DNA of 64,000 bases. Origin: a virus. Made by a program: the position numbers and the translations under genes. The stretch spans positions 3,266 through 67,265 of IMG/VR virus record IMGVR_UViG_3300012347_000286; one strand, written 5' to 3'. How positions within the stretch are numbered: the stretch's first letter is position 1; every line of letters begins with the position of its first letter. The notes beneath the pieces were generated by a model that saw only the letters and a program-made list of their open reading frames with translations, was not told the DNA's origin and made no database searches. Shown here in pieces: positions 1 through 50,431 of this stretch.

Positions 1-155
1 ACGGAATTGTAATTGGTTATTTTCTTAATCCATTTCTTGCAGTTGCTAAGGCAATCTTAGTGAATGCTTACAATGCTACATACACCCCAGGGTGTACAGG
101 TGATTGCAACCAAGGCAGAAACTGCACGTGTAAGGAGAAATGTAATGGGATTTAA
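1..155 (+). CDS. 3' end of an upstream gene (frame 3, open from the window edge); Cys-rich C-terminus ...TYTPGCTGDCNQGRNCTCKEKCNGI*
   Basis: Frame 3 is open from position 3 to TAA at 153-155. A Cys cluster resembling a zinc-ribbon tail (as in QueC-type proteins) is seen but not proven. Confidence 0.35.
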   Translation, partial: GIVIGYFLNPFLAVAKAILVNAYNATYTPGCTGDCNQGRNCTCKEKCNGI

Positions 156-381
156 GAATCCACTAGACTACAATAGAATGCACCATCAAGTTTATATGGC
201 TGGTGTTGAACTACATCACCCAGGTAACGACGGTTTCACTCAATTTGAAATTAAAAAAGACTTGCACAGAATCAAGTGGTTGCTTGATGAAATTATGGCT
301 GACGCACCTACATTTGCGGGTGAAGAAGAATTCTTAAAAGAACATGAGCAGGTGAAGATGTGGCGAACACTAAAGAAATGA
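145..381 (+). CDS. hypothetical protein (78 aa)
   Basis: ATG at 145 is preceded by AAGGAG at 133-138. The track ORF 64..381 is in the same frame but lacks an RBS. Confidence 0.5.
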   Translation: MGFKNPLDYNRMHHQVYMAGVELHHPGNDGFTQFEIKKDLHRIKWLLDEIMADAPTFAGEEEFLKEHEQVKMWRTLKK

Positions 382-662
382 CAGAAGCTGCTGATAGATT
401 CTTAGAAAAACTAAGAAACGACCCAGTCAAACTCAAAAAGTTTTTGCGTGATATCAATGGCCCTGAAAAACGAATCATTGAAGGCCAAGAACGTGAACAC
501 TTATTTCTAGTGTTCAACCTTATCGAGCCAACAAGCGAAAGCAACAATCAACATTGTTGGACGTCTGTATACCATCATGCAGGTAAAGAGTACCACTATA
601 CAGAAGGTTCAGGCTTTGACGAATTAATAGAGATTCTACCAGATGATTTTCAACAAGATTAA
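360..662 (+). CDS. hypothetical protein (100 aa)
   Basis: Track ORF with weak GGTGA RBS; overlaps the upstream gene by 22 nt. Confidence 0.5.
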   Translation: MANTKEMTEAADRFLEKLRNDPVKLKKFLRDINGPEKRIIEGQEREHLFLVFNLIEPTSESNNQHCWTSVYHHAGKEYHYTEGSGFDELIEILPDDFQQD

Positions 663-1104
663 ACACTTAAAGCAAGAAGGCAAGACAATTGGGATTACGT
701 TCAGTACTTTTGACCTACTCCACGCAGGCCACATCGCCATGCTTAGTGAAGCTAAAAACCATTGCGATTACCTTATTGCTGGGCTCCAAACGGACCCCAC
801 AATTGATAGACCTGATACTAAAAACGCGCCTGTACAATCAGTTGTCGAAAGACAAATCCAATTGGCGGCATGCCGTTATGTCGATGAAATCGTTGTGTAC
901 CAAACAGAACAAGACCTTATAGACCTAATCCTTATACTTCCGATTGATGTGCGTATCTTAGGTGTAGAGTATCAAAGTCAAGACTTTACTGGTCGTGAAC
1001 AAGGTGCTCAAAAGAATATCAATCACATCTTTAATAGTCGTGACCATTCATTCAGTAGTAGTGGCTTACGTAAGCGTGTAGCAGAAGCACAGAAGGGAAA
1101 GTAA
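643..1104 (+). CDS. cytidylyltransferase-family nucleotidyltransferase (TagD/RfaE-domain-II-like)
   Basis: N-terminal TFDLLHAGHI is the HxGH nucleotidyltransferase motif. A later RYVDEIV segment matches glycerol-3-phosphate cytidylyltransferase. Confidence 0.75.
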   Translation: MIFNKIKHLKQEGKTIGITFSTFDLLHAGHIAMLSEAKNHCDYLIAGLQTDPTIDRPDTKNAPVQSVVERQIQLAACRYVDEIVVYQTEQDLIDLILILPIDVRILGVEYQSQDFTGREQGAQKNINHIFNSRDHSFSSSGLRKRVAEAQKGK

Positions 1105-1400
1105 TGGATTTAGAAAAATTCGCTAATAGGTTTGGGTTCAAAGTAGTCAACGTCAGACACCATAGCCCATACCAATACTACGACAGTTATAACAGAACAG
1201 CTAGTTTCTATACCGATAGAGAACATACTACTATTGAAATGGAAATAGACCGTAGACGATTAGAATATTTGTCTAACTATTTTGAACAAAGTGAACGATT
1301 GGATCAACAAGACCGTGAAGAAGCATGGCTTCGTGATAAACATTCTGCACTTAAAGACGCCTACGACAAATACAAAATGTTAGTAGCACTTTACAAATAA
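1104..1400 (+). CDS. hypothetical protein (98 aa)
   Basis: Track ORF, start coupled to the upstream stop. Confidence 0.55.
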   Translation: MDLEKFANRFGFKVVNVRHHSPYQYYDSYNRTASFYTDREHTTIEMEIDRRRLEYLSNYFEQSERLDQQDREEAWLRDKHSALKDAYDKYKMLVALYK

Positions 1401-1480
1401 GGTAAATAAAGTAGCGGTCTCAGGCTCATCCCGCTTTACAAACTCTGCTGCCTATGCTATAATACACATAGGAGAAATCA

Positions 1481-1981
1481 ATGGCAAATAACCCAGTAAC
1501 ATACAAGTACACAAGTACTAAGGAATATATCGACTCATTCCCTTGCGCATATCGTCAATGGCGTGCAGATAGTCACTGTAATACAATTCATGGCTACAGC
1601 TTTTCAATGAAGTTCTATTTCGGTACAAACGATTTAGACGTTCGCAATTGGGCTGCTGATTACGGCGGCTTGAAAGAACTAAAGAAGATTCTTGAGGATC
1701 AGTTTGACCACACATTGTTAGTCGCAGAAGACGACCCAGAACTTGAAACATTCAAACTGTTGCAAGAAAAGAAAATGGCTAAACTAACAATCTTACCAAA
1801 GCTAGGTTGTGAAAGTTTAGCTGATATGCTTTACAAATATGTCAATGGTGTTTACGTCCCTGACTTATGGGGCGAAGGTGAAGCAAATAGATTGTGGTGC
1901 TATCGTGTTGAAGTACGTGAGACACAAAGCAACATGGCATTTAGAGAAGGTCACCGTGAATGGTGTGAGGAATTATTATGA
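1481..1981 (+). CDS. queD: QueD/PTPS-like protein (6-carboxy-tetrahydropterin synthase family) with non-canonical metal ligands
   Basis: [19 protein letters not shown] aligns to the QueD GHKCGRLHGHSF Zn motif, [10 protein letters not shown] aligns to LDHHYLND, and a C-terminal CE is present. Two of the expected His residues appear to be Tyr. Confidence 0.6.
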
Positions 1982-2160
1982 TGAAATTTAAATTAGGCGA
2001 TTTAGTTAAGAAAGTTTCCGGGTCACAATGGCACGGTGTTATTGTTGGTACATACTCAACTGAACTTACCCCAGAAGGTTACGCAGTTGAGAGTGATACT
2101 GAAAAGGGCTCTGTGCAGATTTACCCTGCAAAGGCACTTGAACTATGGGTCAAAGAATGA
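1978..2160 (+). CDS. hypothetical protein (60 aa)
   Basis: Track ORF, start coupled to the upstream stop. Confidence 0.45.
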
Positions 2161-2999
2161 GCAAACTTAAAGTAGCAGAACTATTTTACAGCATTCAAGG
2201 TGAAGGGCGCTACATGGGCGTCCCATCTGTGTTCTTACGAACATACGGATGCAATTTTACATGCGGCGGCTTCGGCATGCCCAAAGGACAATTAAGTGAA
2301 GAACGAAACAACGTGGATGCAGAGAGCATCAAAGATTATAAATCCTTACCGCTTGTCAGTACGGGCTGTGATAGCTATGCATCTTGGGACCCTCGTTTCA
2401 AACATCTTAGTCCTGTGCTCGATACCGATAGTATTGCTAGTAGCATTATGGATATACTTCCTCACGGTCGTTGGCAAGATGAACATCTTGTTATCACTGG
2501 TGGCGAACCTCTTCTTGGATGGCAAAGAAGCTATCCAGACTTACTTTCAAACGAAGACATGAAACGTTTGCGTGAGTTGACATTTGAGACTAATGGTACT
2601 CAAAAGTTATCTCACGAGTTTATGGCGTACTTGCAAGAGTGGAAGCGTCACAAAGAGAAGAACGCATTGACATTTAGTGTCAGTCCTAAACTAAGCAACA
2701 GTGGAGAGAAGTGGGATGAAGCAATTTTGCCTGATGTTATATATCAATACCAGTCTGTGGGTTTCGTATACCTTAAGTTCGTGGTGGCATCAGAAGAAGA
2801 TGTACAAGAGGCAGTGAAAGCTGTAGCTGAATATCGCAAAGGTGGCTTTACTGGTCCAGTATACTTGATGCCAGTAGGTGGCGTTGAAAGTGTTTACACT
2901 ATGAACGCAAAGAACGTAGCACTAGCGGCGATGAAGCTAGGCTTTAGGTACTCGGATAGACTCCAAGTGCCATTATTTAAAAATGAATGGGGTACATAA
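2145..2999 (+). CDS. queE: 7-carboxy-7-deazaguanine synthase QueE-like radical SAM protein
   Basis: [24 protein letters not shown] matches the QueE N-terminus. The cluster motif reads C-x3-C ... then GCDSYASW (QueE CDSxxTW), implying about a 34-aa insert between Cys2 and Cys3. Confidence 0.8.
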
Positions 3000-3187
3000 T
3001 GAGTGAGCAAATTACAGATATTGACGATCCGGTTGCGAGATTTTTAGCAGAGGGCGGCAAGATTACACAAGGTGCATATAAAGAAAGCGGCAGAGCGGAA
3101 GGTGCTAGTACTAACATTTGGTCTAGAAAACCAGGACGCCCTAAAGCAGACGCTATCACACCTGTAGTTGATACTGAGAAAGAATAA
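2999..3187 (+). CDS. hypothetical protein (about 62 aa)
   Basis: ATG overlaps the QueE stop (TAATG); in frame with track ORF 2987..3187. Confidence 0.4.
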   Translation: MSEQITDIDDPVARFLAEGGKITQGAYKESGRAEGASTNIWSRKPGRPKADAITPVVDTEKE

Positions 3188-3188
3188 A

Positions 3189-3812
3189 ATGTTAGAAACA
3201 ATTTGCGAAGTATTAGAAGATGCATATAATCGTAACTGGATTACAAGTCGTGACGGTAACGTGAGTATCCGTCATCACGACCGCGAACATTTTTACATCA
3301 CACCAAGCGGTGTACGTAAGCAGACACTACAACCTGACCAGTTTAAGAAGATTGGTATTGTGAGTAGCTTGATGTGGCGAGAAGAAGAATACACTGACAT
3401 TAGTTCTAAACTAAAACCCAGCGGTGAGATTCCATTACACTTCGGATTACAGAAGAACATGGGTCAACATATCAATGATGTGCGTGTAGTTGTACATGTG
3501 CATCCTACTTATTGTATTGCTGCGATGCATGCCGGTATCGACCTTTCTACTATCAGCGATGCGTTTCCAGAACTAAATCGCTACACAAAGGTAGCACCTA
3601 ATGTCGGTGATGTTGCTCCAATCAGTCAAGAGTTAGCTGATAAGTGTTTTGAGAATCTACAATTGGATAACTACGGTAACATTGCGTATGATATCGTGGG
3701 TATCAAAGGACACGGGGTAGTTGCTATTGATACAAGCCCATGGCGTGCGTATGAGCATATTGAACGGCTAGAACATATTTGCAAGATTGTGTTGGCATCA
3801 GGTAAATACTAA
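3189..3812 (+). CDS. class II aldolase/adducin-family protein
   Basis: GAGAAAG RBS. SRDGNVSIR (GNiS.R motif) and the VVHVHPTY His cluster are typical of AraD/FucA-like class II aldolases. Confidence 0.65.
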   Translation: MLETICEVLEDAYNRNWITSRDGNVSIRHHDREHFYITPSGVRKQTLQPDQFKKIGIVSSLMWREEEYTDISSKLKPSGEIPLHFGLQKNMGQHINDVRVVVHVHPTYCIAAMHAGIDLSTISDAFPELNRYTKVAPNVGDVAPISQELADKCFENLQLDNYGNIAYDIVGIKGHGVVAIDTSPWRAYEHIERLEHICKIVLASGKY

Positions 3813-4093
3813 TGATAAGCACACGTATTATAGACAATGATATGGGTGCGGTAGCAAAGGTGCCTCTTACTGGTAGAGGCACTGTGCATGGTATCAACGT
3901 TGAAATTGATAAAGTCAAACTACCCGAACTTGACATGAGTTTGTTAGAAATGTTGTCTGATGACATGGGCTTGAAACGTTTCAGCGAACATTGCGAAGAA
4001 CATCTGGGCAATAGTGAACTTGAAAAGAAGTTCATTTCAGAGTATACTACGTTTGTAACACCACTTAACAAATCAGGAAAAGCGAGATATTGA
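3812..4093 (+). CDS. hypothetical protein (93 aa)
   Basis: Track ORF, ATGA overlap with the upstream gene. Confidence 0.5.
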   Translation: MISTRIIDNDMGAVAKVPLTGRGTVHGINVEIDKVKLPELDMSLLEMLSDDMGLKRFSEHCEEHLGNSELEKKFISEYTTFVTPLNKSGKARY

Positions 4094-4305
4094 TGAATGA
4101 AAAAATAAAAGAACTTGCGGTACTAGCAAAGATACAAATGGTTAGCGAACCACGCCTTGAAGACTTTGCTGACAGATTGATTAAAGAATGTATCAGTGCA
4201 ATCGAAGAAGTAAAGAAGTCTCCGGCGACTACTTACGAGCGTGATATGACAGACTCCGAGGCTATTGATAAATGCATCCAGGCAATCAAGGATACGTTTC
4301 AATGA
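4090..4305 (+). CDS. hypothetical protein (71 aa)
   Basis: Track ORF, ATGA overlap. Confidence 0.5.
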   Translation: MMNEKIKELAVLAKIQMVSEPRLEDFADRLIKECISAIEEVKKSPATTYERDMTDSEAIDKCIQAIKDTFQ

Positions 4306-5651
4306 AGCTATATAGCAAGCGTATTGCATTTTTAATTAGCGACCAGCACTTTATACCTCACGGTGGCATTGGCTCATTCTGTAAAAGTTTTACAGAGATG
4401 TGCGGTCGACTGAATTGGAAAGTAGATATCATTTTAGACAAAGTACCTACTGGTACTTTTGATGATGTTATTAAAGGTGCAGGCGCTAACATTGTAGTAC
4501 CGGATCTACCATTGCGATATAGTGACCATACTGCGACATTCGCATTTAGCGACACTATTAACTTTGAAAAGATTATCAACTTCCGTAAAGCACTATTGAA
4601 AGCATTTGAGACAAACGTATATGATATGATTGTTTGCAATACGCAGGAAGCAATGACTGCAAGTTATGCAATGACAGTGAACAAGTACATACCTGTTGTA
4701 TTCTACACTCACTTGCATAGTATGATTTTCCGTGATACCCAAGGCAGTGATGTGTTCTTGGATTCTTATCATAACTTCTACAACAAACACATGGAGTTCT
4801 CTGACATTATAATCGGTACGCAAAGTCAGAAGAATATCGATGAACTAACTAAGTACGGCGCAAGTAACTGCGTACTACTGCGTATGCCAATGAGTGAGCG
4901 CGGTCTACTGGAACAAAACACTATTAATGAGCGAAGTGGCGTGTTGTTCATCGGTCGTTGGGAAGAAGGTAAGAACCCTGAATCATATATTAGAGCGATG
5001 AAGGAAGCAAAACTCCCATGCAAAGTTATGACAAACAATAACGGTGCTAAGAAGTTTGAGAAAGCATTTACTGACGCGGGTATCACGGATTATGAAATCA
5101 AAGCAGGCATCACAGGGCAAGAGAAAGTAGACTTCATTAAAAGTTCTAAAGTCTTCTTCATGCCTAGCTTGCGAGAGAACTACCCCTTTGCATTCTTAGA
5201 ATGTCTAGGTCATATGCCATGCGTAGTATTAGATAAGCAAGACTGGTCTGATAACTTTGATTCATCATTGTATCATAAATGCAAGCAAGATGACGTTCCC
5301 GCAATGCTCAACGAATTGTACACATCAGATTCGCGTGGTGCATTAGAGTATGTCAAGTCATTAGATGACGATGTGGCTACTGGTTGGATTAAGTTCTTAG
5401 ATGAATTTGTGGGTAAGCGTAGTAATACAAATGCTGCAAAGATTAACAACTATGAGACAATCAAATACCGTGACTATATCACTGAGTTGGAACGTACTCA
5501 TTTAGCACGTGAAGATTTTGAATCAGTACTGGCAAACAAGTACAAGTTCATTAATGTTTGGTATACTGACTCAGACACATACTTGAGCAAAGATCCAACA
5601 TATAAACCAGTGGAGGAAGTAACAGCTACAGGTCTGTTCAGTTTCGAATGA
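4302..5651 (+). CDS. glycosyltransferase, GT4 (group 1) family
   Basis: C-terminal FIGRWEEGKN ... FMPSLRENYPFAFLECLGHMPCVV matches the GT4 E-x7-E signature. AAGGA RBS sits before the ATG at 4302. Confidence 0.7.
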   Translation: MKLYSKRIAFLISDQHFIPHGGIGSFCKSFTEMCGRLNWKVDIILDKVPTGTFDDVIKGAGANIVVPDLPLRYSDHTATFAFSDTINFEKIINFRKALLKAFETNVYDMIVCNTQEAMTASYAMTVNKYIPVVFYTHLHSMIFRDTQGSDVFLDSYHNFYNKHMEFSDIIIGTQSQKNIDELTKYGASNCVLLRMPMSERGLLEQNTINERSGVLFIGRWEEGKNPESYIRAMKEAKLPCKVMTNNNGAKKFEKAFTDAGITDYEIKAGITGQEKVDFIKSSKVFFMPSLRENYPFAFLECLGHMPCVVLDKQDWSDNFDSSLYHKCKQDDVPAMLNELYTSDSRGALEYVKSLDDDVATGWIKFLDEFVGKRSNTNAAKINNYETIKYRDYITELERTHLAREDFESVLANKYKFINVWYTDSDTYLSKDPTYKPVEEVTATGLFSFE

Positions 5652-6481
5652 AAAAGATTTTAATTACAGGTAACTCAGGTTACATTGGGAGTCACTTAAC
5701 CAAGTTGTTAGGTAATGATTATGAAGTGTATGGGTTGGACTTGAAGAATCCTCAAGTTCCAGTCACTAAGCAATTCAAGCACGATATTAGACAAAACATT
5801 CCTGCTTCAAGTATTGAGTTTGATGCAGTTGTACATCTGGCTGCATTGGTTAATGTAGGTGAGAGTGAGAAACTTCCCACTGATTACTATATGACAAACT
5901 TCTGCGGTACATTGAATGTTATGAACACGGTGAAGTTTAAAAACTTTATCTTTGCTAGTACCGGTGCTGCTGAAAAGTGTGAAAGTGCTTATGGAACAAG
6001 TAAGAAAGCCGCAGAGGATTGTGTACGTGAGTGGTGCAATTATAAGAACGTCCCGTACACTACTTTTAGATTCTACAACGTAATTGGATCAGATGGATTC
6101 AAACCAACGAACCCAGATGGATTGATGTACAATTTAATTAGAGCACTAGATACTAAAGAGTTTACTATTTTTGGGGATGACTACAATACAGTAGATGGTA
6201 CTTGTGTTAGAGACTACGTACATGTAATGGAAATATGTAACGCATTGAAACTAGCAATTGATAAGCCTGCGAACAGTTTGCAGAATTTGGGTCACGGAAT
6301 CGGACACACAGTAAAAGAAATGGTTGAAATCTTTGGTATGACTAATGATGTAACTATTAATGTTACATGTGGTCCAAGACGTAAGGGTGACATTGAAAAG
6401 TCAGTCCTCTCGGACGTTAGCCCATACATGAAGAAACTCTATGAGATTGACGAACTGCTTAAGGTTGACAATATATCGTGA
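5648..6481 (+). CDS. NAD-dependent epimerase/dehydratase (SDR family, UDP-sugar epimerase-like)
   Basis: N-terminal ILITGNSGYIGSHL is a Rossmann GxxGxxG motif, and a YxxxK-type region (YGTSKKAAE) is present. Confidence 0.8.
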   Translation: MKKILITGNSGYIGSHLTKLLGNDYEVYGLDLKNPQVPVTKQFKHDIRQNIPASSIEFDAVVHLAALVNVGESEKLPTDYYMTNFCGTLNVMNTVKFKNFIFASTGAAEKCESAYGTSKKAAEDCVREWCNYKNVPYTTFRFYNVIGSDGFKPTNPDGLMYNLIRALDTKEFTIFGDDYNTVDGTCVRDYVHVMEICNALKLAIDKPANSLQNLGHGIGHTVKEMVEIFGMTNDVTINVTCGPRRKGDIEKSVLSDVSPYMKKLYEIDELLKVDNIS

Positions 6482-6493
6482 TTGTGTTATAGT

Positions 6494-7531
6494 ATGACTA
6501 TGACTACATCTACACACACAAAACGTATCGGCTTTGCTTGCAAATGGGCAGAGATTAACAAAAAAGGCGAGATTGCTAGTGCTGAGGGCCTGAACACAGG
6601 TGGCACTACTCTTGCATGGGCGAATCGCAACAAGCGTGATATCGTGGAACAAAAGATTATTGACGTTGCAAAAACTAACATTGTCAATACCCACGCACTC
6701 ATTAAGAAAGTCGCAACACTTCCTAATGAATTACGCATGTTGCGATTGACTTCGGATATGTTGTCATTCTATACACATGATGCCTATACAGACTTCTGGC
6801 AAAGCAAGTACATGCAAGATTCACTTGCTCGATGGTTCGCCCCACTAGGTGAAACAGCACGACAAAACAATGTTCGTCTAAGTTTTCACCCCGACCAGTT
6901 TGTAGTTCTTGCAAGTGACCGTGACGATGTAGTAAACAATTCAATTAGGGAGTTCGAGTATCATGCAGACATGGCCCGCTGGCTTGGTTATGGCAAGTCA
7001 TTCCAAGATTTTAAAATCAATGTACATATCTCAGGCCGCAAGGGCCCGCAAGGCATTAGAGATGTATACGGCCGTCTTAGCCCTGAAGCACGTAACTGTC
7101 TAACACTAGAGAACGAGGAATACACGCATGGACTTAATGATACTCTATTACTATCTGATATCGTTCCCACTGTACTTGACATTCATCATCATTGGATCCG
7201 GGAAGGGGAATATATCTCGCCTAGCGATGACCGCGTCAAACGTGTTATCGATAGCTGGCGCGGTACTCGCCCCACTCTACACTATAGTGTTAGTCGTGAG
7301 GATGTACTTGTGGGGCACTCAGCTACAATCAGTCCAGACCACACTCAACTGATTACTGAAGGACTAAGTAAACAAAAGCTCCGCGCTCATAGTGACTACT
7401 ACTGGAATGATTCAGTAAATAATTGGGCACTGTCATTCTTAGATAAATTCGATATGATGTGTGAAAGTAAAGCTAAGAACTTAGCCAGCTTTAAACTATA
7501 CGAAAAGGCAAAACAAGATGGGATTATTTGA
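6494..7531 (+). CDS. uvdE: UV damage endonuclease UvdE
   Basis: Blocks VRLSFHPDQFVVLAS, NVHISG, LTLENEE, DIHHHW and RAHSDYY align with Bacillus/S. pombe UvdE (SFHPNQF, NIHIGG, LENDD, HHF, RSHADY). Confidence 0.8.
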   Translation: MTMTTSTHTKRIGFACKWAEINKKGEIASAEGLNTGGTTLAWANRNKRDIVEQKIIDVAKTNIVNTHALIKKVATLPNELRMLRLTSDMLSFYTHDAYTDFWQSKYMQDSLARWFAPLGETARQNNVRLSFHPDQFVVLASDRDDVVNNSIREFEYHADMARWLGYGKSFQDFKINVHISGRKGPQGIRDVYGRLSPEARNCLTLENEEYTHGLNDTLLLSDIVPTVLDIHHHWIREGEYISPSDDRVKRVIDSWRGTRPTLHYSVSREDVLVGHSATISPDHTQLITEGLSKQKLRAHSDYYWNDSVNNWALSFLDKFDMMCESKAKNLASFKLYEKAKQDGII

Positions 7532-7940
7532 TAAATTAAAAGAGGTCTTTAATAAGAAGGAAGAAAAACTTCCTGAACCAAAGAAGGCTCCTAAGGTTAA
7601 GGAACCAACCAAAGAGCTAACTGAAAAAGAGAAAGCTACACTAGCGGGTGAACCCTATGTCTCGATTATCTCGGTTGACTTGGATCCTAATGATATAAAC
7701 AACGGGGCTTTTGAACTTGACTACAACGAAAAATTTGTTGTAAATTTGATTAGAGCAGGGTATAAGTTTAAAGACAGTGACACAGATAATACTATCGTAG
7801 ACAGATGGTTTCAAAATGTATGTCGAAATGTTGCATTAGAAGTCTATGAGCAGGTCCAAGCAGACCCATCCAATCGCAATGAGGATCTTCGTAACATTCG
7901 ACAACGAGACATTGGCAACGGTCGCACAGAAGTAAGCTAA
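7518..7940 (+). CDS. hypothetical protein (140 aa)
   Basis: Track ORF, overlaps the uvdE end. Confidence 0.55.
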   Translation: MGLFDKLKEVFNKKEEKLPEPKKAPKVKEPTKELTEKEKATLAGEPYVSIISVDLDPNDINNGAFELDYNEKFVVNLIRAGYKFKDSDTDNTIVDRWFQNVCRNVALEVYEQVQADPSNRNEDLRNIRQRDIGNGRTEVS

Positions 7941-7952
7941 AAGTACTCATAT

Positions 7953-7990
7953 TAAAAGTCAACAAAAAGGTTGACTTTTATTCTTTTTGG
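7953..7990 (+). terminator. rho-independent terminator (10-bp perfect hairpin AAAAGTCAAC/GTTGACTTTT plus T-run) overlapping the next -35
   Basis: Inverted repeat at 7953-7962 and 7969-7978 is followed by TTATTCTTTTT. Confidence 0.6.
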
Positions 7991-7999
7991 TTGTATAAT
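7971..7999 (+). promoter_or_regulatory. sigma70-type promoter (TTGACT-17-TATAAT)
   Basis: -35 at 7971-7976 and -10 at 7994-7999, upstream of the 8034 start. Confidence 0.7.
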
Positions 8000-8033
8000 A
8001 GATTCATCTTGTAAGCAACTCAATGGAGTAAAA

Positions 8034-9362
8034 ATGGCAACAGTAGTAGCAACATCTAAATTGGCAAAAACAAAAGTAAAGCCAAAAGTTAATATCAAAA
8101 CAGCACGTAAGTCAACATTCGGGCTCACCTTTGATTATTTCAAACGTGACCCAAATGGTCGTCAAATTAATAACATCCTTGAACGTAAGCCCGGGCAGTA
8201 TGCACAAATCTCAATCGAAGATTTAGTTAACAAAGTTAACACTGGTGGCAACATTGATTTTATGTCAGCTCTTGAGCGTTATCAAAAGCTGGCAATTATG
8301 TTCGACCCAGCAAACTTCCCTGTGACTGGAATGGTCCTGCTAGGCGACTTGGCAAGTGACGAAGACATTCAGCGTGAGTTAGATGTGCCTCACGCTACGA
8401 ACATTTTTGCATACTTTGATGAACAACGTGTCCAGTCTATTCAGGCTGTGAAGACACCTGGCAAGCAAGAATATACAATGGTAAACGGACAACATACTGC
8501 AACTACCGTTGCGTTGATTGTTGCATCGGGTTTGATGAAGGGTTGGAAAGCTAAAGATTGGAAGAAGTTCCCAATCTTAGTTTCATACATTGAAACACTG
8601 GATCGTAGTAAAGCACGTGAAACGTTTGCTTTGTTGAACGGCGAAATGTCAAAAGACATTACAACTTTCGACCACTGGAAGCAACACTATTTGTCAGTTC
8701 GTTTAGATGGTAGCAAGAATCCAAAGTACTTGCACACTGCAAAACTGATTCAAATCTTAAAGACTTACGAATGCATTCCCTTACCAGAAGACCATGATGA
8801 TGCAGGTATGGCAGGTGCAGTTACTCACTTGAACGCTGTGGAAACAGCAGCCAAAGGTGGTGACTATGAGAAGTTAGAATTCATCTTTGCAAATCGTAAC
8901 AAGTTCTGGAACAGTCTCCCAGTTGATAACACTGAATTTGGTTTCTACGGTACTCTGTTAGATATCACTGAGGCAGAAAATATCTTGCGTAACTCGCAAG
9001 ATTTTGAAGAATTTGTCGAAGACATTCATGCAGTGGTGCAAAAAGTATTCTCGGGTATGCCTAAGCTGAAGGGCAGTGTTACCAAAGCGTACAAAAAGTA
9101 TCGCTATGACCAATTTGTTGATAAGAACGCAAGTGTCCCATTCAACGTTGCGCTGTATGTTACCTATAAAGTTTACAAGATGCTTGGTGGTACATTTGAT
9201 ATCGCTCCGCTGAATTCAATGTACGTTCACAACAAGGTTGATGTGTTGCACTACCTCACTGATGATGAACTTGCATTCATTAACAAACTGGTTCCTGCTA
9301 AGAGCAAACTCAAAGGCAAGAACGTAGTGATTCCAAAAGCTACTAAAAAGAAAGTAAAGTAA
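8034..9362 (+). CDS. DGQHR-domain (DndB/DpdB-like, ParB-fold) protein, divergent
   Basis: GGAG RBS. MVNGQHTATTVALIV resembles the DGQHR motif of DndB/DpdB. The first 21 codons of track ORF 7971.. lie inside the promoter. Confidence 0.5.
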   Translation: MATVVATSKLAKTKVKPKVNIKTARKSTFGLTFDYFKRDPNGRQINNILERKPGQYAQISIEDLVNKVNTGGNIDFMSALERYQKLAIMFDPANFPVTGMVLLGDLASDEDIQRELDVPHATNIFAYFDEQRVQSIQAVKTPGKQEYTMVNGQHTATTVALIVASGLMKGWKAKDWKKFPILVSYIETLDRSKARETFALLNGEMSKDITTFDHWKQHYLSVRLDGSKNPKYLHTAKLIQILKTYECIPLPEDHDDAGMAGAVTHLNAVETAAKGGDYEKLEFIFANRNKFWNSLPVDNTEFGFYGTLLDITEAENILRNSQDFEEFVEDIHAVVQKVFSGMPKLKGSVTKAYKKYRYDQFVDKNASVPFNVALYVTYKVYKMLGGTFDIAPLNSMYVHNKVDVLHYLTDDELAFINKLVPAKSKLKGKNVVIPKATKKKVK

Positions 9363-9363
9363 A

Positions 9364-9783
9364 ATGTTGAATTGCTTCTTCTACATCATGGTGCTTACAC
9401 ACAATGGTAAAGTTGGATTTGGAATTACTGGCAATGTACACAATCGTATTTTCGACTACATTGCTGGTTCTGCTGAGTTACAATCGTTCAAGTATCTCTA
9501 TTACGGCTCCCGTGCTGACATTGCCGATATTGAGAAGAAACTCAAAGCTGAGTGGAAACGACACATGTGGAAAGTGTTCAAAGGTAACAAATGGACTCTT
9601 GAAATTCTTGACCCATCGTCAGGGCTGTCAGCAGAAGATGTACAAGAATGGGTAAACAATAAGATTGTTGAACTCAACTTACCTATCCGTGTCATTAAAG
9701 ATGAATGGTTGCCCTATCAAGGTGACAAGCGAGTTACCCGTAAATTCATTGAACTTAGCCCAGATATGTATCTTGAGCCTTGA
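9364..9783 (+). CDS. hypothetical protein (139 aa)
   Basis: Track ORF immediately after the upstream stop. Confidence 0.5.
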   Translation: MLNCFFYIMVLTHNGKVGFGITGNVHNRIFDYIAGSAELQSFKYLYYGSRADIADIEKKLKAEWKRHMWKVFKGNKWTLEILDPSSGLSAEDVQEWVNNKIVELNLPIRVIKDEWLPYQGDKRVTRKFIELSPDMYLEP

Positions 9784-9808
9784 CATTTTCTAAATATACG
9801 TATATAAT
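9780..9808 (+). promoter_or_regulatory. sigma70 promoter (TTGACA-17-TATAAT); FEN ATG lies only 6 nt downstream of the -10
   Basis: -35 at 9780-9785 and -10 at 9803-9808; ATG at 9815. Confidence 0.7.
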
Positions 9809-21284: not shown

Positions 21285-22847
21285 ATGTTAAAAAGAATCT
21301 TTTCACTAAGTAACGGGGCGTTGCTCGTTGCACTATCATTAAGTACTATTGCCGCTTGGTATAGTATCATCGGTCTAACCGCTATCTTCGCAGGTGCGGT
21401 TGTTCCCATTATCATTATGGGTACTGCACTAGAGTTTGCAAAGATTACAACCACAGTTTGGTTACGTAAGTACTGGTATCGCTGTTCATTGATTATGAAG
21501 ATATACCTAGTTCCTGCTGTTGTGTTACTAGCACTATTGACTAGTATGGGTATCTTTGGATTCTTATCTAAAGCACACATGGATCAAGGAATTGGGTCAG
21601 GCGATGTGCAGGCTAAAGTGTCCTTGCTTGACGAAAAGATTGCTACTCAGCGTGAAACTATCAAGTCAAGTAAGTCTATGCTGGCTCAAATGGATCAGCA
21701 AGTTAACGACATTATGACTAAGGGCGATAGTGAAAAGTCAGTTGAGCGTTCGGTTACGATTCGTAAACAACAGGCTAAAGAACGTGCCTCACTGCAAAAA
21801 GATATTGAAGTTGCAAACAAAGAAATCGCAAAACTAAACGAAGAACGAGCACCTATTGCTAGTGAACTACGCAAAGTAGAAGCAGAGGTAGGTCCTATCA
21901 AGTATATCGCTGCCCTTATTTACGGTGACAATGCTGATGCAAATATGCTTGAAGCTGCGGTTCGTTGGGTTATTATCTTACTCGTTGTGGTCTTTGATCC
22001 ACTTGCTATCATGTTAGTATTAGCTGCTAATCAAAGTAAAGAGTGGGACGAAAACAATGACGTAGAAGAAGAAAACAAACTACGTGAACAAGTTGAGCAT
22101 GATAAAGTAGTTGAGACTATTTTAGAAGAAGTTCCGGTAGTAGAAGAATCAGTTGTTCTTGAAGTAACTGACGAAGAGGAAGAAGCATTCAGAGAGTTAG
22201 AGCCCAAGCCTGAACCAGAAAAGAGCATGGCAGAACTTCACCCATATTTGAATCAACCATTCACTCACTTTGAGAATACTACACCAATTGTTCACAAACC
22301 AGAAGTTGAAGAACCAGCGTATGAACAAGATGACGGTCCTTTAACAGAAGAACAGGTTGAACAGATTGTTGAATCAGCAGAGGTTCCTAAAATCTTAGCA
22401 ATGGGAATTGACGATGTTGAACGTCCTGGTGACTACGTGCTTCCCAAAGATGATTACGTGCTACCTGATTTTAAAGTGATTCCTGGTAGTGATTTTATTG
22501 AGTACGAAGGCAAAAAGATGCACAAGAGTGCATTTAAGGACCGTCACCCGGAACTCGCACTTGAGGTAGATAGACCAAGAGAACCTAAGACAGACTTTGG
22601 ATCATCCTTTCCATTAGCTCCTCTTGCTGGTGACACTTTTGTGCGTGTTGACACTATCCCAAATAGTGTATACAAGTTCAATGGCATACGTTGGATAGAG
22701 ACAAACAGAAGTACTACTGACACCTACTTATCTAATGCGGATTACATACAGTTCTTGGTAGAGAAAATTGCTACTGGAGAATATGATCCTGAGCAATTAA
22801 CCGAACAAGAAGAAGAAGCAATTCGTATTCATATTGCAAACTCATAA
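21285..22847 (+). CDS. large membrane protein: N-terminal TM helices, central coiled coil, acidic C-terminal domain
   Basis: Three to four hydrophobic segments, then a KE-rich heptad region, then an E/D-rich tail. Confidence 0.6.
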   Translation: MLKRIFSLSNGALLVALSLSTIAAWYSIIGLTAIFAGAVVPIIIMGTALEFAKITTTVWLRKYWYRCSLIMKIYLVPAVVLLALLTSMGIFGFLSKAHMDQGIGSGDVQAKVSLLDEKIATQRETIKSSKSMLAQMDQQVNDIMTKGDSEKSVERSVTIRKQQAKERASLQKDIEVANKEIAKLNEERAPIASELRKVEAEVGPIKYIAALIYGDNADANMLEAAVRWVIILLVVVFDPLAIMLVLAANQSKEWDENNDVEEENKLREQVEHDKVVETILEEVPVVEESVVLEVTDEEEEAFRELEPKPEPEKSMAELHPYLNQPFTHFENTTPIVHKPEVEEPAYEQDDGPLTEEQVEQIVESAEVPKILAMGIDDVERPGDYVLPKDDYVLPDFKVIPGSDFIEYEGKKMHKSAFKDRHPELALEVDRPREPKTDFGSSFPLAPLAGDTFVRVDTIPNSVYKFNGIRWIETNRSTTDTYLSNADYIQFLVEKIATGEYDPEQLTEQEEEAIRIHIANS

Positions 22848-24532: not shown

Positions 24533-25732
24533 ATGACTGATGAATCAAAACAACTAAACCATTGTAGTTTCTGCGGAGCAAGCAAAGAAGCAGTTAAAAA
24601 ATTAGTAGTAGGTGAAACTGCCGCTATTTGTAGTGACTGTATTGAACTTTGTGAGGACCTAATTGAGGACGAAATCTCGGAAGAACAGGAGACTACAAAT
24701 CCTGACTACGATCCTGAATCTATCAAAGAGTTTCTGGATCAGCATGTCATCGGTCAAAATGATGCTAAAACTGTATTGAGCGTTGCCATTGCAAACCATT
24801 ACAAGCGTATCAATCACCCACCAAAAGACTTAGAGATTCAAAAGGGAAACGTTCTTATCGTAGGGCCCACGGGTAGTGGTAAAACATTGCTTGCTAAGAC
24901 TGCTGCCAAGTTTCTCAAAGTGCCCTTTGTAGTCGCTGATGCAACTAGTTTGACAGAAGCCGGATACGTCGGTGATGATGTAGAATCCATGATATCAATG
25001 TTACTTAACGCGGCTGGGGGAGACAAAGAACTAGCAGAGCGCGGTATTGTATTCGTTGATGAAATTGACAAAATCGCCCGTAAGAGCGAAGGTTCTAGTA
25101 TCACACGTGACGTATCCGGCGAAGGCGTACAGCAAGCACTATTGAAGATGGTTGAAGGCACAACTTGTCGAGTACAAAGCTCCGGTGGACGCAAGCACCC
25201 AGGCGGTGATATGGCTGAAATCAACACAAAGAACATCCTCTTTATTGCAGGCGGTGCTTTTGTTGGATTGAAAGACGTTATCGGTAAAAGAACAAACAAC
25301 TCTGGCATTGGCTTCACTGCCGGTGTCAAGGATGCTAAGGTTGAAGGTGACTTGAGTAAAGTAACACCCGACGACTTGACTAAGTTTGGTATGATTCCTG
25401 AGTTTATCGGTCGTTTCACAACTACAGTAAGCATTAGCGAATTGACCAAAGAACAGTTAATCCACATTCTTACTGATGTTAAGAACAATTATGTTGCTCA
25501 ATATAAGTATTTGCTCAAGTTAGATGGAATCGAGCTAACCTTCACTAGTGATGCATTGGATGAACTAGCAGAACGTTGCTTAAAACTCAAAACAGGTGCT
25601 CGTGGATTGCACACTGAGATTGAACGTGTACTAATGCCCCATATGTATCGTACTAGATACTACCGCCAAAATGAAATTAAGATGCTAAATATAGATAAGG
25701 AGCAGGTTATAAACCCACAAGCTATTCTATGA
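24533..25732 (+). CDS. clpX: ClpX ATP-dependent protease ATPase subunit
   Basis: N-terminal C4 zinc finger (CSFCG...CSDCIELC), Walker A GPTGSGKT, GYVG pore loop, Walker B VDEIDK and IGF ClpP-docking loop. Confidence 0.9.
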   Translation: MTDESKQLNHCSFCGASKEAVKKLVVGETAAICSDCIELCEDLIEDEISEEQETTNPDYDPESIKEFLDQHVIGQNDAKTVLSVAIANHYKRINHPPKDLEIQKGNVLIVGPTGSGKTLLAKTAAKFLKVPFVVADATSLTEAGYVGDDVESMISMLLNAAGGDKELAERGIVFVDEIDKIARKSEGSSITRDVSGEGVQQALLKMVEGTTCRVQSSGGRKHPGGDMAEINTKNILFIAGGAFVGLKDVIGKRTNNSGIGFTAGVKDAKVEGDLSKVTPDDLTKFGMIPEFIGRFTTTVSISELTKEQLIHILTDVKNNYVAQYKYLLKLDGIELTFTSDALDELAERCLKLKTGARGLHTEIERVLMPHMYRTRYYRQNEIKMLNIDKEQVINPQAIL

Positions 25733-26056: not shown

Positions 26057-27937
26057 ATGAGCAAAGTCATCGGTATCGACCTCGGTACCACAAATTCATG
26101 CGTAGCCGTTATTGAAAACGGAATCCCCAAAGTTATTGAGAATTCAGAAGGTGCTAGAACAACACCATCTATCGTTGCTTACACAAGTGATGAAATTCTA
26201 GTAGGCGCAAGCGCAAAGCGTCAGGCAGTAACAAACCCAAAGAACACAGTATACGCAAGCAAGCGTTTAATCGGTCGCAAGTTCGCCGAAGAAGCTGTCC
26301 AAAAAGATATTAATTTGATGCCATACAAAATCGTTGCTAATGACAACGGTGATGCATGGGTTCAAGTTAACGAAGATAAGTTAGCACCTCCGCAAATCTC
26401 AGCAGAAGTATTGCGCAAGATGAAGAAGACTGCGGAAGACTATCTAGGTGAAGAAGTCACCCAAGCAGTTATCACAGTTCCAGCATACTTTAACGATAGT
26501 CAACGTCAAGCAACGAAAGATGCTGGTCGTATTGCTGGTCTAGAAGTATTGCGTATTATCAACGAACCAACAGCAGCCGCACTAGCATACGGTGTTGACA
26601 AGCAAGACAAGAAAGACCGTAAAGTCGCAGTCTATGACTTAGGTGGAGGTACGTTTGACGTATCTATCATTGAGTTGGCAGACGTTGATGGTGATAAGCA
26701 GATTGAAGTTCTATCAACAAACGGCGACACTTTCTTGGGCGGTGAAGATTTCGACCAACGCATCATGGATTACTTGGTTGAAGAGTTTAAGAAAGAGTCC
26801 GGCGTTGACTTGACTAAAGACGTTCTTGCATTGCAACGTTTGAAAGAAGCCGCAGAGAAGGCTAAGATTGAATTGTCAAGTTCACAAAGCACAAGTGTTA
26901 ACTTGCCATACGTTACAGCAGACGCATCAGGTCCTAAACACTTGAACGTTACAATCAATCGTGCTAAGTTGGAACAACTAGTTGATGAATTGATTCAACG
27001 TAGTCTTGCCCCATGTAAGCAAGCGATGAAGGATGCAGGCGTTACTGCAAGTGACATTGACGAAGTTATCTTAGTCGGTGGTATGACACGTATGCCAAAG
27101 GTGCAAGAAGTTGTTGAACAATTGTTTGGCAAAGCACCTCGCAAAGATGTTAACCCAGACGAAGCAGTTGCCGCTGGTGCAGCTATTCAAGGTTCTGTTC
27201 TAGCAGGTGACCGTACTGACGTTCTATTGCTTGACGTTACTCCACTATCATTGGGTATCGAAACGATGGGCAATGTGTTCTCAAAAGTTATCAACAAGAA
27301 TACAACTATCCCTACTAAGGCTTCACAGACTTTCAGTACAGCACAGGACAATCAACCTGCTGTTACAATCAAAGTAGGACAGGGTGAGCGTGAACTATTC
27401 CAATATAATAAAGTACTTGGTGAGTTCAACTTAGATGGTATTGCACCAGCACCCCGCGGTATGCCTCAAATCGAAGTTACGTTTGATATTGACGCAAACG
27501 GTATCATGCACATCAGTGCTAAAGACAAGGGTACAGGTAAAGAGAACAAAATCACTATCAAGTCTAACTCAGGTTTGACAGAAGCAGAGATTCAGCAAAT
27601 GGTTAAAGATGCTGAGGACAATGCAGAAGCAGATAAGAAACACGTTGAATTGGTACAAGCACGTAACGGTGCTGAAGGTACGTACAACACGTTTAAGAAA
27701 GACTTTGATTCATACAAGGATCAAGTAACAGAAGAAGAACGTACCAAAGCAGAAGAAGCATTGAACGCTATTCAAGAGGCACTTAAAGGTGAAGATGTAG
27801 AAGCAATTCAAAAAGCTACTACTGATTTGTATCAATCGATTGGTCCAATCACCGCTAAGAAGCACGAAGCAGAAGAGGCTGCAAAGCCAAAAGCTGATGA
27901 CAACATCACTGATGCAGAAGTTAAGGAGGCGGTATGA
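26057..27937 (+). CDS. dnaK: DnaK (Hsp70) chaperone
   Basis: [22 protein letters not shown] and [11 protein letters not shown] are Hsp70 signatures; full-length. Confidence 0.95.
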
Positions 27938-31533: not shown

Positions 31534-32127
31534 ATGAGTTTAGTTCCAATCGTAGTAGAATCTACTTCCAAAGGTGAGCGCAGTTACGACATTTACAGTC
31601 GGTTGATGCGTGACCGTGTTATCTTGCTTGAGGGCGAAGTTCACGACCAAATGGCAAACTTGATTGTTGCCCAACTACTTTTCTTGGAATCAGAAGATGC
31701 GACTAAAGACATTAGCATGTACATTAACTCTCCGGGTGGTTCGGTTACTGCTGGTATGGCCATCTATGATACTATGCAATTTATTGCCCCCGACGTTCAA
31801 ACAATCGTCATGGGTCAGGCTTGTTCTATGGGTAGTCTTCTCGCTCAGGGAGGGGCAGCTGGAAAAAGATTCATGCTCCCAAACGCACGACACATGATTC
31901 ATCAGCCCTCTGGTGGCGCACGTGGTATGCAAAGTGACATTGAGATTTCTTACAAAGAGATTACATATTTGAAAACTCGTTTGACTGAAATCTACGTTGA
32001 ACACAATAGCAAGGGCAAGACCTACGCAGAGTTTGAGAAGGATATGGATCGTGACACATTCATGTCAGCACAACAAGCGTTAGACTATGGTCTGATTGAC
32101 AAGATTGTGACAAAACGAAACGGTTGA
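31534..32127 (+). CDS. clpP: ClpP protease proteolytic subunit
   Basis: [10 protein letters not shown] (Ser), MIHQP (His) and RDTFMSA (Asp) form the catalytic triad. Confidence 0.9.
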
Positions 32128-50100: not shown

Positions 50101-50431
50101 TTCTGCAACTATCGCTCTAGATGACACCATGAAAATGGACAGTCAAGGTATAATTCAGAGAACTAATGGCAACATTACAATCATGCCGAACATTCAGACA
50201 GCCGATGACAATATTATAATGTCTCCTGCTACTGTTAGTGCAAAATTTGTAGCCACAATAGGAACTACCTTTTCTGCACTAAGTAATCAAGGAACACCTG
50301 CTGCAGGTCAACGTGCATTTATCACTGATGGTGACTTAGCCGCAGCCGGTAACTTTGGCGCAGTTGTAGGCGGAGGAGGCTCGAATGGAGTGCCCGTTTA
50401 CTATGATGGAAGTACTTGGCGCATTGGATAA
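47120..50431 (+). CDS. large repeat-rich tail fiber-like protein (1103 aa)
   Basis: G/T/S/N/V-rich beta-repeat composition and an internal ~64-aa (~190-nt) duplication. Confidence 0.65.
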   Translation: MAIPGQANINIGAENQVAGSDNLYEAFHTIQNNFTTLFNASSTLTTFRAGEGIQVSANASNGVVDINNTGVTKITAGTGVTISSANGNVTISTAAQGQTGVTRVGLTSSTLNVGGVSGSNVVSSGTFTVDLPRVPTSSSFATGSYIAPNVTVDEFGRVTAIANGVGVGTVTSVGINPGKGIAVTGGPIVDSGAIDVINTGVTSLQAGTGIRLSGSNGDITVSALQVTSGTVTQIGLTSNTLSVTDGTVTSSGTINVELPVNLSSNNLILSGNANVSGNVNTYKLVSTFSNVQTDLTIGGGPSPGSLTFKTQNNSGNYVSLIPPVNTAVAGLVFMLPNTLGSNSQVLGTDGAGTMNWRIPPAAGTNTQIQFNDPASNGAPQLAGHANLTFNKNTGLLTSQQLSVTANANVGNLSTSGTVTASRFISNVATGTTPFTVTSTTMVTNLYSQYANSIVANAQPNITSVGRLSSLTVGNATANVVLGNSTITTSDITASNAFVLTNTASLLFNTQTSNTKFTALQPPDTILAGAGLYANGTPGGNAFMFWNLPNTWGNVNQFLTTDGSGTMQWSNVPASSPGFDGANIIAISNTTVSTTTTTGALTVGGGVGVEGNVNVGGNLALATGGINVGGGNLTVTQTGMLGARNLTLSSGANISGDVNFLAFSDVRFAGNIAGNVSFRGDYFNFGSNAVISGGGYITSKDITVNGRVEATGNITSSSYVDGQYVKASTALYVYGQSQLGNVGNVYITGGTSGQVLSTDGTGNLSWISASSGGGSSFDASQQLTITNTNTSTSYITGAVRVAGGMGVIGNINAGGNVTSTITASNITGNVSYSSYSGAFTNTTGEWMQSGLYYDGTNIIINERFWKDPIGFAQVKSAISNGVQFGVDPGGYSILPVTPSGDWVEQTMYGAGIWTITVGTISGVPSGTLAVISISNITLNDGGLVSAKLVSGQVLKTALNGQLITNKISSHNADVTISTFDVMFNAYRKIYLGGFGSATIALDDTMKMDSQGIIQRTNGNITIMPNIQTADDNIIMSPATVSAKFVATIGTTFSALSNQGTPAAGQRAFITDGDLAAAGNFGAVVGGGGSNGVPVYYDGSTWRIG

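Follow-up and report, generated by a model that had tools for sequence, protein, structure and literature searches.

The first 6,481 positions of the stretch analyzed here, a 64,000-nucleotide window (positions 3,266 to 67,265) of IMG/VR virus record IMGVR_UViG_3300012347_000286, were found to be the downstream half of an island of early genes, about 12-17 kb long, in which genes for the synthesis of a 7-deazaguanine are interleaved with genes for glycosyltransferases and sugar-nucleotide enzymes. All genes of this block lie on the + strand, and in the open reading frame (ORF) listing their stop and start codons mostly overlap by 1-4 bases. Two of them belong to deazaguanine synthesis: a QueD-like 6-carboxytetrahydropterin synthase at 1481..1981 (Pfam PTPS, 7e-17; PHROG 2389, 2e-36) and a QueE-like radical S-adenosylmethionine enzyme, a 7-carboxy-7-deazaguanine (CDG) synthase, at 2145..2999 (PHROG 2076, 2e-53). 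The QueD-like protein is of the phage type, with a CxxxHGY motif that was present in 67 of 69 family members and also in QueD of phage BUCT-ZZ01 and of Acidovorax phage ACP17. The QueE-like protein was 49% identical to QueE of BUCT-ZZ01, and its top five NCBIfam matches were all QueE models, every one of them below cut-off. Both genes had been named at these coordinates in a first-pass annotation of this DNA, and the family scans confirmed them.

The same annotation had placed four further enzymes in the block, which were recovered by the scans as well, several of them below cut-off. A cytidylyltransferase-like nucleotidyltransferase (CTPt) is encoded at 643..1104 (Pfam PF01467, 1.6e-11); the nearest NCBIfam models were RfaE domain II (heptose-1-phosphate adenylyltransferase, 3e-21) and TagD (2e-15), both below cut-off, and the protein is a candidate synthase of a nucleoside diphosphate (NDP) sugar. 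A GT4-like glycosyltransferase, with a GT-B fold and an E-x7-E motif, lies at 4302..5651 (Pfam Glycos_transf_1, 1.9e-5) and is called GT-A here; a second glycosyltransferase, found upstream in relatives, is called GT-B. GT-A is followed at 5648..6481 by an extended short-chain dehydrogenase/reductase (SDR), a GalE-like NDP-sugar epimerase/dehydratase (Pfam Epimerase, 1e-31; closest NCBIfam model GalE, 2e-45, below cut-off), which was present in 48 of 50 relatives. The class II aldolase/epimerase/dehydratase-family gene at 3189..3812 (Pfam PF00596, 1.3e-27) had been counted as part of the set; of the 36 relatives whose upstream region is fully covered, just 7 have it, and it is an accessory member of the island.

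A megablast search of positions 1..9800 against 50,697 phage records returned no match. A scan for relatives of GT-A yielded 80 IMG/VR loci at 70-83% identity; more than 1,300 GT-A homologues were found, and the system is very common in freshwater viromes. The window phage and its relatives (hereafter the window family) make up a large group of jumbo phages from freshwater that is related to Pseudomonas phage PA5oct, the nearest cultured relative by backbone synteny. FolE, QueD and QueE convert GTP to CDG, and this enzyme set is made up of QueD and QueE in the window and of FolE directly upstream, where it ends about 20 nt 5' of window position 1 in two contigs (L002 and L003) that are 95% identical at the nucleotide level. 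The gene order in the relatives is PolB, c43, c36, c22 (a DpdA-like gene), c18 (a DpdL gene), GT-B, FolE, CTPt, QueD and QueE, and it continues after QueE with GT-A, SDR, UvdE, a virion protein, an optional pair of ParB-like and GIY-like genes, and FEN. The succession CTPt-QueD-QueE-GT-SDR was repeated in the 80 IMG/VR loci, and FolE-CTPt-QueD-QueE-GT-A-SDR was repeated in a second sample drawn independently through FolE; because of this recurrence, the order is not due to chance.

In the first sample, which comprised 36 loci whose sequence extends 9.4 kb or more upstream of GT-A, QueE, QueD and FolE were present in all 36, GT-B in 35, CTPt in 32, DpdL in 27 and the DpdA-like gene in 22; in all 14 loci lacking the last of these, the available sequence extends no more than about 2 kb past the furthest upstream island gene that was seen. 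Among the 23 loci of the second sample, each with at least 6 kb upstream of FolE, GT-B was found in 23, DpdL in 22, and CTPt and the DpdA-like gene in 20 each, and the upstream sequence was short or incomplete in the three loci without a DpdA-like gene. A DpdA-like gene lies upstream in every relative whose sequence extends far enough. No upstream extension of the window genome itself was returned by exact-pattern scans of viral and metagenome collections or by exact-protein look-ups with three window ORFs, and a protein identical to GT-A occurred only on a contig of 4.4 kb. The first-pass annotation had seen no FolE, DpdA or QueC in the window; this holds for the window, and FolE and a DpdA-like gene were found upstream in relatives, whereas no QueC was detected at all, either in the window or across related loci that total about 2 Mb. 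The suggestion that positions 1..155 hold the 3' end of QueC was rejected: the ORF at 3..155 (+, frame-3 translation) is the 3' part of a gene for a hydrophobic, Cys-rich peptide of 55 residues, and the complete ORF in contig L002 (MFEIFIYGIVIGYF...CNGDCNQGRNCTCKEKQNGV) starts directly after the FolE stop codon.

The product of c22 is a protein of about 490 residues without a Pfam match. Its consensus holds the catalytic motifs of tRNA-guanine transglycosylase (TGT), namely GDSGGFQ, GWAFGG, HCLGVS and FDCASP, and an hhalign comparison with a DpdA2 set gave a probability of 94.3% (E value 1e-7, 199 columns) with the motifs in register. The set consisted of a 416-residue ORF of BUCT-ZZ01, ORF390 of Vibrio phage nt-1 and a protein of Xanthomonas phage X1 annotated as queuine tRNA-ribosyltransferase; ORF390 was taken as the DpdA2 of Hutinet et al. 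because it lies between FolE and QueC. The same set aligned with E. coli TGT at 83.6%, and hhalign found no similarity between c22 and DpdA3 of Cellulophaga phage phiST. From these alignments, c22 is predicted to be a divergent enzyme of the TGT superfamily to which DpdA2 is closest, and DpdA-like homologues numbered nearly 6,000. When about 30 ORFs of the window were scanned with Pfam, neither TGT nor QueC was detected. The Pfam TGT model, which had been put forward as a check, also misses nt-1 ORF390, and the Pfam-negative result therefore carries no weight for DpdA. Hidden Markov models of DpdA2 and of the DpdA-like family, together with a scan for the DSGGxQ motif, likewise detected no DpdA in the window.

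The c18 protein carries FLGxPHRHIFHF, which corresponds to the DpdL signature LxxxHRHxF in place of CxxxHGH. It aligned with phiST CGPG_00067 at a probability of 98.3% (hhalign, E value 2e-14) and was 52% identical to the ACP17 homologue gp125 (tblastn), and by this signature and these alignments c18 is identified as DpdL. DpdL is a T-fold protein defined by LxxxHRHxF, with CDG decarboxylation as its proposed activity (Cui et al. 2023, PMC10516641). With DpdL present and QueC absent, the core of the island is therefore the published pathway of the 2'-deoxy-7-deazaguanosine (dDG) type, composed of FolE, QueD, QueE, DpdL and DpdA, which yields dDG in phiST without QueC (PMC10516641). In E. coli, DpdA and DpdL of phiST and ACP17 gave no dDG, and it was suggested that further enzymes may be needed (PMC10516641). 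The dDG-type system, described for phiST and predicted for ACP17 (Cui et al. 2023, PMC10516641), shares its enzyme set with the window family, as well as the LxxxHRHxF DpdL, the absence of QueC and the location of the island next to a DNA polymerase gene. It differs in two respects: the transglycosylase of the window family is neither DpdA3 nor a typical DpdA2 and belongs to a longer branch (about 490 residues) shared with PA5oct gp168, and the window-family island embeds two GT4-like glycosyltransferases and sugar-nucleotide enzymes that are unmentioned in PMC10516641.

On this basis, FolE, QueD and QueE would make CDG from GTP, and, as the relatives suggest, DpdL would convert CDG to 7-deazaguanine and the DpdA-like enzyme would swap guanine in phage DNA for 7-deazaguanine after replication. 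DNA exchanged in this way would be shielded from nucleases that recognise G. That the window family carries out deazaguanine DNA modification is considered highly probable, and the 7-deazaguanine island proposed in the first-pass annotation is supported by the CDG enzymes and by DpdL and the DpdA-like gene in relatives. PA5oct (Wroclawvirus) provides proxy evidence on this point. Its gp168-gp159 locus shares with the window family PolB, c43, a DpdA-like gene (35% identity), a GT-B-like gene, DpdL (61-63%), an SDR-like fragment, a phosphoribosyltransferase-like gene, a QueE-like gene, the virion protein and FEN; it differs in having no GT-A, in that no FolE or CTPt was detected within the 19-kb locus, and in that its PTPS gene lies elsewhere in the genome (gp230). 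PA5oct DNA resists five restriction enzymes with G in their sites, from which a modified G in GA and/or GG contexts was inferred, with gp162 (QueE) and gp230 (PTPS) pointed to and with neither the chemistry determined nor a transglycosylase named (PMC12191111). The modified G of PA5oct is evident from experiment; our comparison adds gp168 as a candidate DpdA-like enzyme, gp167 as a candidate GT-B-like enzyme and gp166 as a candidate DpdL.

DNA, rather than tRNA, is the likely target. The genes could instead serve a pterin glycoside, such as tetrahydrobiopterin glucoside, made by FolE, the PTPS-like protein, the SDR and a glycosyltransferase; this combination formally fits the biopterin-glucoside pathway of Synechococcus PCC 7942, the host of BUCT-ZZ01. 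A universal QueE makes no sense for a pterin end product, however, the SDR is GalE-like and not sepiapterin-reductase-like, and no pteridine glycosyltransferase came up when the GT-A profile was searched against solved structures. Biopterin-glucoside synthesis was dropped because of the conserved QueE, DpdL and DpdA and the GalE-like character of the SDR. A boost of queuosine precursor for host tRNA has been proposed for phages that carry preQ0 genes and no recognised DpdA (PMC6884629), but preQ0 cannot form without QueC, and no tRNA gene was found within the 64-kb window. The conserved DpdL and DpdA-like genes and the restriction resistance of PA5oct DNA speak against the tRNA and the pterin route alike, and a target other than DNA is regarded as extremely improbable.

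The glycosyltransferases are the second component of the island. The Pfam Glycos_transf_1 score of GT-A (24.7 bits) is just under the gathering cut-off of 26.4, and many of its close homologues carry a precomputed PF00534 match. Its motifs are conserved, namely a glycine-rich HGGIG loop and PSLRE-x7-E (in general form PSxxE-x7-E), and PSLRENYPFAFLE is kept in 73 of 79 family members. Moreover, among solved structures the GT-A profile matched the GT4 enzyme WlaC/PglH (E value 0.013), and the family has a conserved C-terminal extension of about 100 residues. GT-A thereby has the Glycos_transf_1 domain (with a Pfam score below cut-off), the E-x7-E motif and the N-terminal glycine-rich loop that are expected of a GT4-type enzyme; no close characterised homologue of it was found. 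GT-B, of about 395 residues, is GT4-like as well, and (D/E)-x7-E was present in the six GT-B sequences read (three from the window family and one each from ACP17, PA5oct and Sulfitobacter).

These enzymes might belong to an unrelated module that merely adjoins the core. In that case the core would make plain dDG DNA, as in phiST, and the glycosyltransferases, the SDR, CTPt and the aldolase would act on a different target, for example proteins of the virion, the envelope of the host or some other base of the DNA. A gene order that is conserved within one phage family is alone no proof of common function, and the sugar-nucleotide genes vary among relatives, which may carry a mannose-phosphate isomerase fusion, a UDP-glucose dehydrogenase or the aldolase. 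The arrangement across lineages argues against such a separation. GT-B or a distant homologue adjoins DpdA and DpdL in five separate lineages, often with codon overlap: the order is c22-DpdL-GT-B in the window family, DpdA2-DpdL-GT-B in BUCT-ZZ01 (GT-B 65% identical), DpdA2-GT-DpdL-QueE with overlapping codons in ACP17, GT-DpdA2-DpdL-QueE in X1/BUDD and gp168-gp167-gp166 in PA5oct. A GT-A homologue in BUCT-ZZ01 (42-44% identity) lies between FolE and DpdA2 with overlapping codons, and metagenome contig L178 holds the operon GT-A-DpdA-DpdL-GT-B-SDR-QueD, also with overlapping codons. Furthermore, GT-A homologues occurred in just five distinct phages among the 50,697 records, and three of the five (BUCT-ZZ01, X1 and BUDD) belong to the 28 records that carry DpdL. 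The failure of ACP17 DpdA and DpdL to give dDG in E. coli, for which the authors suspected a missing component, points in the same direction. In addition, the module genes of BUCT-ZZ01 are 37-65% identical to those of the window family, except for the phosphoribosyltransferase at 30%, whereas its replication gene FEN reaches just 29%; this pattern suggests a module that is transferred or maintained as a whole. In several phage lineages, GT-A, GT-B and the SDR are interspersed among deazaguanine genes, and the glycosyltransferase link drawn in the first-pass annotation is no accident of position.

The reading in which the glycosyltransferases act in the deazaguanine pathway must be weighed against several observations. 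The main weakness is chemical, in that 7-deazaguanine lacks an obvious hydroxyl for a sugar, and we know of no precedent for a GT4 enzyme that links a sugar to a nucleobase as an N-glycoside, a C-glycoside or an ester. In phiST, where replacement by dDG is full, the 12 annotated genes that surround DpdL include none named as a glycosyltransferase, and a tblastn search with GT-A and GT-B matched no Cellulophaga phage. The GT-A homologue of X1 lies 40 kb from the deazaguanine genes, beside the NAD-salvage genes for nicotinamide phosphoribosyltransferase (NAMPT) and nicotinamide mononucleotide adenylyltransferase (NMNAT), and CTPt is missing from the compact clusters of BUCT-ZZ01, L178, ACP17 and PA5oct. 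Other points touch the core: the AlphaFold2 (AF2) model of c22 was poor (pLDDT 58.8, shallow alignment) and a Foldseek search with it was uninformative, the decarboxylase activity of DpdL is itself only proposed, and no DpdA-like, DpdL or GT-B gene lies within the 64-kb window, these three being assigned to this genome from its relatives. Considering all of this, the chances that the glycosyltransferases act in the same pathway are evenly balanced, and the same verdict, neither for nor against, applies to the whole favoured reading of a deazaguanine DNA-modification island with glycosyltransferases in its pathway. Two separate modules are a serious possibility but a somewhat unlikely one.

If the glycosyltransferases do act in the deazaguanine pathway, the genomic context suggests that CTPt and the GalE-like SDR would supply or remodel an NDP-sugar donor and that GT-A and GT-B would add sugar to the deazaguanine, either as the free base before insertion or in DNA afterwards. 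The acceptor might be N2, a carbon of the ring or, before decarboxylation, the carboxylate of CDG. A glycosylated 7-deazaguanine is a plausible product, and it is proposed tentatively, at somewhat less than even probability, that a sugar-decorated 7-deazaguanine is present in the DNA of the window family, and probably in that of phages resembling ACP17, X1, BUCT-ZZ01 and PA5oct, and that it is made by a DpdA/DpdL core with one or two GT4-like glycosyltransferases. The logic would be that of T4 DNA glucosylation, in which hydroxymethylcytosine is modified by alpha- and beta-glucosyltransferases: an unusual base is made and then decorated from an NDP-sugar, with evasion of nucleases as the result. 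T4 differs in that its pyrimidine is made at the nucleotide level, whereas a purine analogue introduced by base exchange is proposed here. In addition, the glycosyltransferases of the window family are GT4-like, GT-A has no PHROG match and hence none to the T4 alpha- or beta-glucosyltransferase, and no hydroxymethyl handle is evident.

A sugar-bearing 7-deazapurine could also arise at the level of the nucleotide or as a small molecule. A phosphoribosyltransferase would then ribosylate CDG, as in the toyocamycin and tubercidin pathways, to give a product which the polymerase would incorporate or which would be set free as a glycosylated 7-deazapurine metabolite. Huimycin and dapiramicin are examples of natural products with an N-glycosylated deazaguanine. 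In 13 loci, QueD and QueE are separated by a gene for a xanthine-guanine phosphoribosyltransferase (XGPRT)-like protein, which has homologues in BUCT-ZZ01 and PA5oct as well; a GMP-reductase-like gene was found in 10 loci and a P-loop kinase gene in 23. The window, however, encodes no phosphoribosyltransferase, kinase or GMP reductase, unlike the toyocamycin and tubercidin pathways, and in the relatives these genes are minority accessories (6-8 of 36 loci). Salvage of guanine is a simpler account of the phosphoribosyltransferase, which in those relatives would recycle the guanine released by base exchange. A nucleotide-level route is less likely because a DpdA-like base-exchange enzyme is found wherever the sequence extends far enough, and the nucleotide-level and small-molecule routes together are considered very unlikely. 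Insertions at other places in the island were also observed. GMP-reductase/IMPDH-like and DUF6071 genes lie between GT-B and FolE in L013, L067, L076, L083 and others, and in some other relatives a gene for an FAD-dependent DAO oxidoreductase lies between QueD and QueE; these may represent further tailoring or purine-salvage steps.

The bacterial Dpd system (DpdA with the ParB-like ATPase DpdB and DpdC) likewise uses a TGT-family enzyme to insert a 7-deazaguanine into DNA, and it differs from the window-family island, in which no DpdC and no restriction genes were seen. A scan of bacterial genomes gave three weak loci, of which a contig of a Sulfitobacter metagenome-assembled genome was alone informative. 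This contig (L095, JBDWQI010000209.1) encodes at 1586-7634 a GT-A-like protein, a protein of 585 residues of unknown kind, a DpdA-like protein, a GT-B-like protein and a Vut_1/YhhQ-family membrane protein (25.5 bits, under the cut-off of 27.2), and the locus adjoins genes for a histidine kinase and a response regulator. It may be a cellular counterpart of the glycosyltransferase and transglycosylase module that uses an imported precursor.

To our knowledge, the known 7-deazaguanine modifications of DNA vary in a small C7 substituent, and none of them bears a sugar. The combination of deazaguanine and glycosyltransferase genes had been called undescribed in the first-pass annotation; no description of it was found in the searchable literature, including the two reference studies of phage deazaguanines, and a paper of late 2025 lists glycosylation only for hydroxymethyl-pyrimidines. 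Relative to that literature, the novel elements are the divergent branch of transglycosylases and the GT4-like enzymes embedded in the island together with sugar-nucleotide genes, and the core was already known. If the proposal is correct, this would be, as far as we know, the first glycosylated purine-type base in natural DNA, and glycosyltransferases acting on the base would define a new chemical class of DNA hypermodification. A sugared deazaguanine could also explain why DpdA and DpdL fail to give dDG in E. coli, and it would bear on the evasion of restriction and CRISPR, on defences of the type IV and glycosylase kinds that recognise modified G, and on tools for sequencing and enzymology. 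Versions of the module are held by four cultured phages, PA5oct, ACP17, X1/BUDD and BUCT-ZZ01, which makes the question directly testable. For PA5oct-like jumbo phages, moreover, a candidate transglycosylase (the gp168 family) and a putative DpdL (gp166) are now assigned.

Downstream of the island, the gene at 8034..9362 (+) had been annotated as a DGQHR-domain protein and a DpdB-like partner of the transglycosylase. A good AF2 model of the protein (pLDDT 85.6) showed an N-terminal ParB/Srx domain, with a Foldseek match of 7e-5 to ParB-CDP, and the protein has an NGQHT motif in which N151, G152, H154 and T155 are invariant and Q153 nearly so. The protein shares a superfamily with DndB and DpdB, which also have the ParB/Srx fold and a (D/N)GQH-type motif. 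It differs from them in having no match to a sequence model, in being optional and in being unlinked to the transglycosylase. No Pfam domain was found in the protein or in 57 homologues, and there was no PHROG match, no NCBIfam match (E value up to 0.1) and no PADLOC match (34 members, E value up to 1). The family models PF14072, the DndB model recommended earlier as a check, TIGR03187 and PADLOC Dnd/Dpd gave no match either, the DGQHR motif is absent, and tblastn against the phage records found nothing. The gene occurred in 24 of 50 relatives, and in 22 of 50 it was accompanied by the small GIY-YIG/T5orf172-like gene that follows it at 9364..9783 (+; weak match to PHROG 681 'endonuclease', 3e-4). 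It was also present in L090, a phage contig of 301 kb, where the 10 kb upstream of it contain no Que genes. A terminator-like hairpin (7953-7980) and a promoter-like site (7971-7999) lie 5' of the ParB-like gene, and a perfect consensus promoter, TTGACA-17-TATAAT, lies at 9780-9808, after the GIY-like gene and before FEN. The two genes (7953-9808) are a separate, self-contained optional cassette that nothing ties to the deazaguanine pathway, possibly a pair of nuclease or sensor proteins. A DpdB role for 8034..9362 was dropped, since no model matches, the gene is present in 24 of 50 relatives, L090 has no Que genes in those 10 kb and the cassette has promoter- and terminator-like signals of its own.

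Other features of the block lie outside the proposed pathway. The packing of one co-directional block on the + strand was borne out, and it includes a gene that the first-pass annotation had left unlisted, at 6482..7531 (+), for a UvdE UV-damage endonuclease (Pfam PF03851, 4e-36). UvdE is a neighbor gene outside the pathway. The slot 3' of the SDR always holds a UV-damage repair gene, of two unrelated kinds: UvdE in 45 of 50 relatives and a T4 DenV-like pyrimidine-dimer glycosylase (Pyr_excise) in 5 of 50 and in BUCT-ZZ01 (for example L056 2299-2886 and L001 16766-17338). The following ORF (7518..7940) resembles a virion protein in family scans. Within the island, a promoter-like site, by consensus match only, was noted at 1435..1463 (+; TTTACA-17-TATAAT with extended TG, 11 of 12 matches) in the 80-nt gap 5' of QueD. 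Near it, a clean presence/absence difference of 419 bp separates the window (about 1398-1401) from L002 (3832-4260): the 95%-identical contigs carry a gene for a P-loop protein resembling adenosine 5'-phosphosulfate (APS) kinase between a 98-residue ORF and QueD, and the window does not. Longer fusions of an APS-kinase-like P-loop kinase with a nucleotidyltransferase domain occur in 23 relatives.

The wider genomes are large. Proteins of the block were found on freshwater metagenome contigs of 263-524 kb, among them L131 (Ga0209084_1000001, 524,565 bp), L160 (367 kb), L088 (362 kb) and L167 (264 kb), and the island-bearing contigs reach megaphage size, well beyond the 287 kb of PA5oct. The window also encodes a DNA ligase and, on the + strand, a chaperone and protease set composed of a ClpX-like AAA ATPase (24533-25732), a full-length Hsp70/DnaK (26057-27937; Pfam 3.7e-258) and ClpP (31534-32127; 1.4e-79). 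Two long + strand ORFs are without assignment: that at 47120-50431 (1,103 residues) has no PHROG or Pfam match, and that at 21285-22847 (520 residues) has no PHROG match and only a sub-threshold Pfam match to DUF4407. On the - strand lies a NAD-salvage pair, NAMPT and a NadR-like NMNAT fused to a Nudix domain (59320-60720 and 62324-63343), and it is this same pair that the GT-A homologue of X1 directly adjoins.

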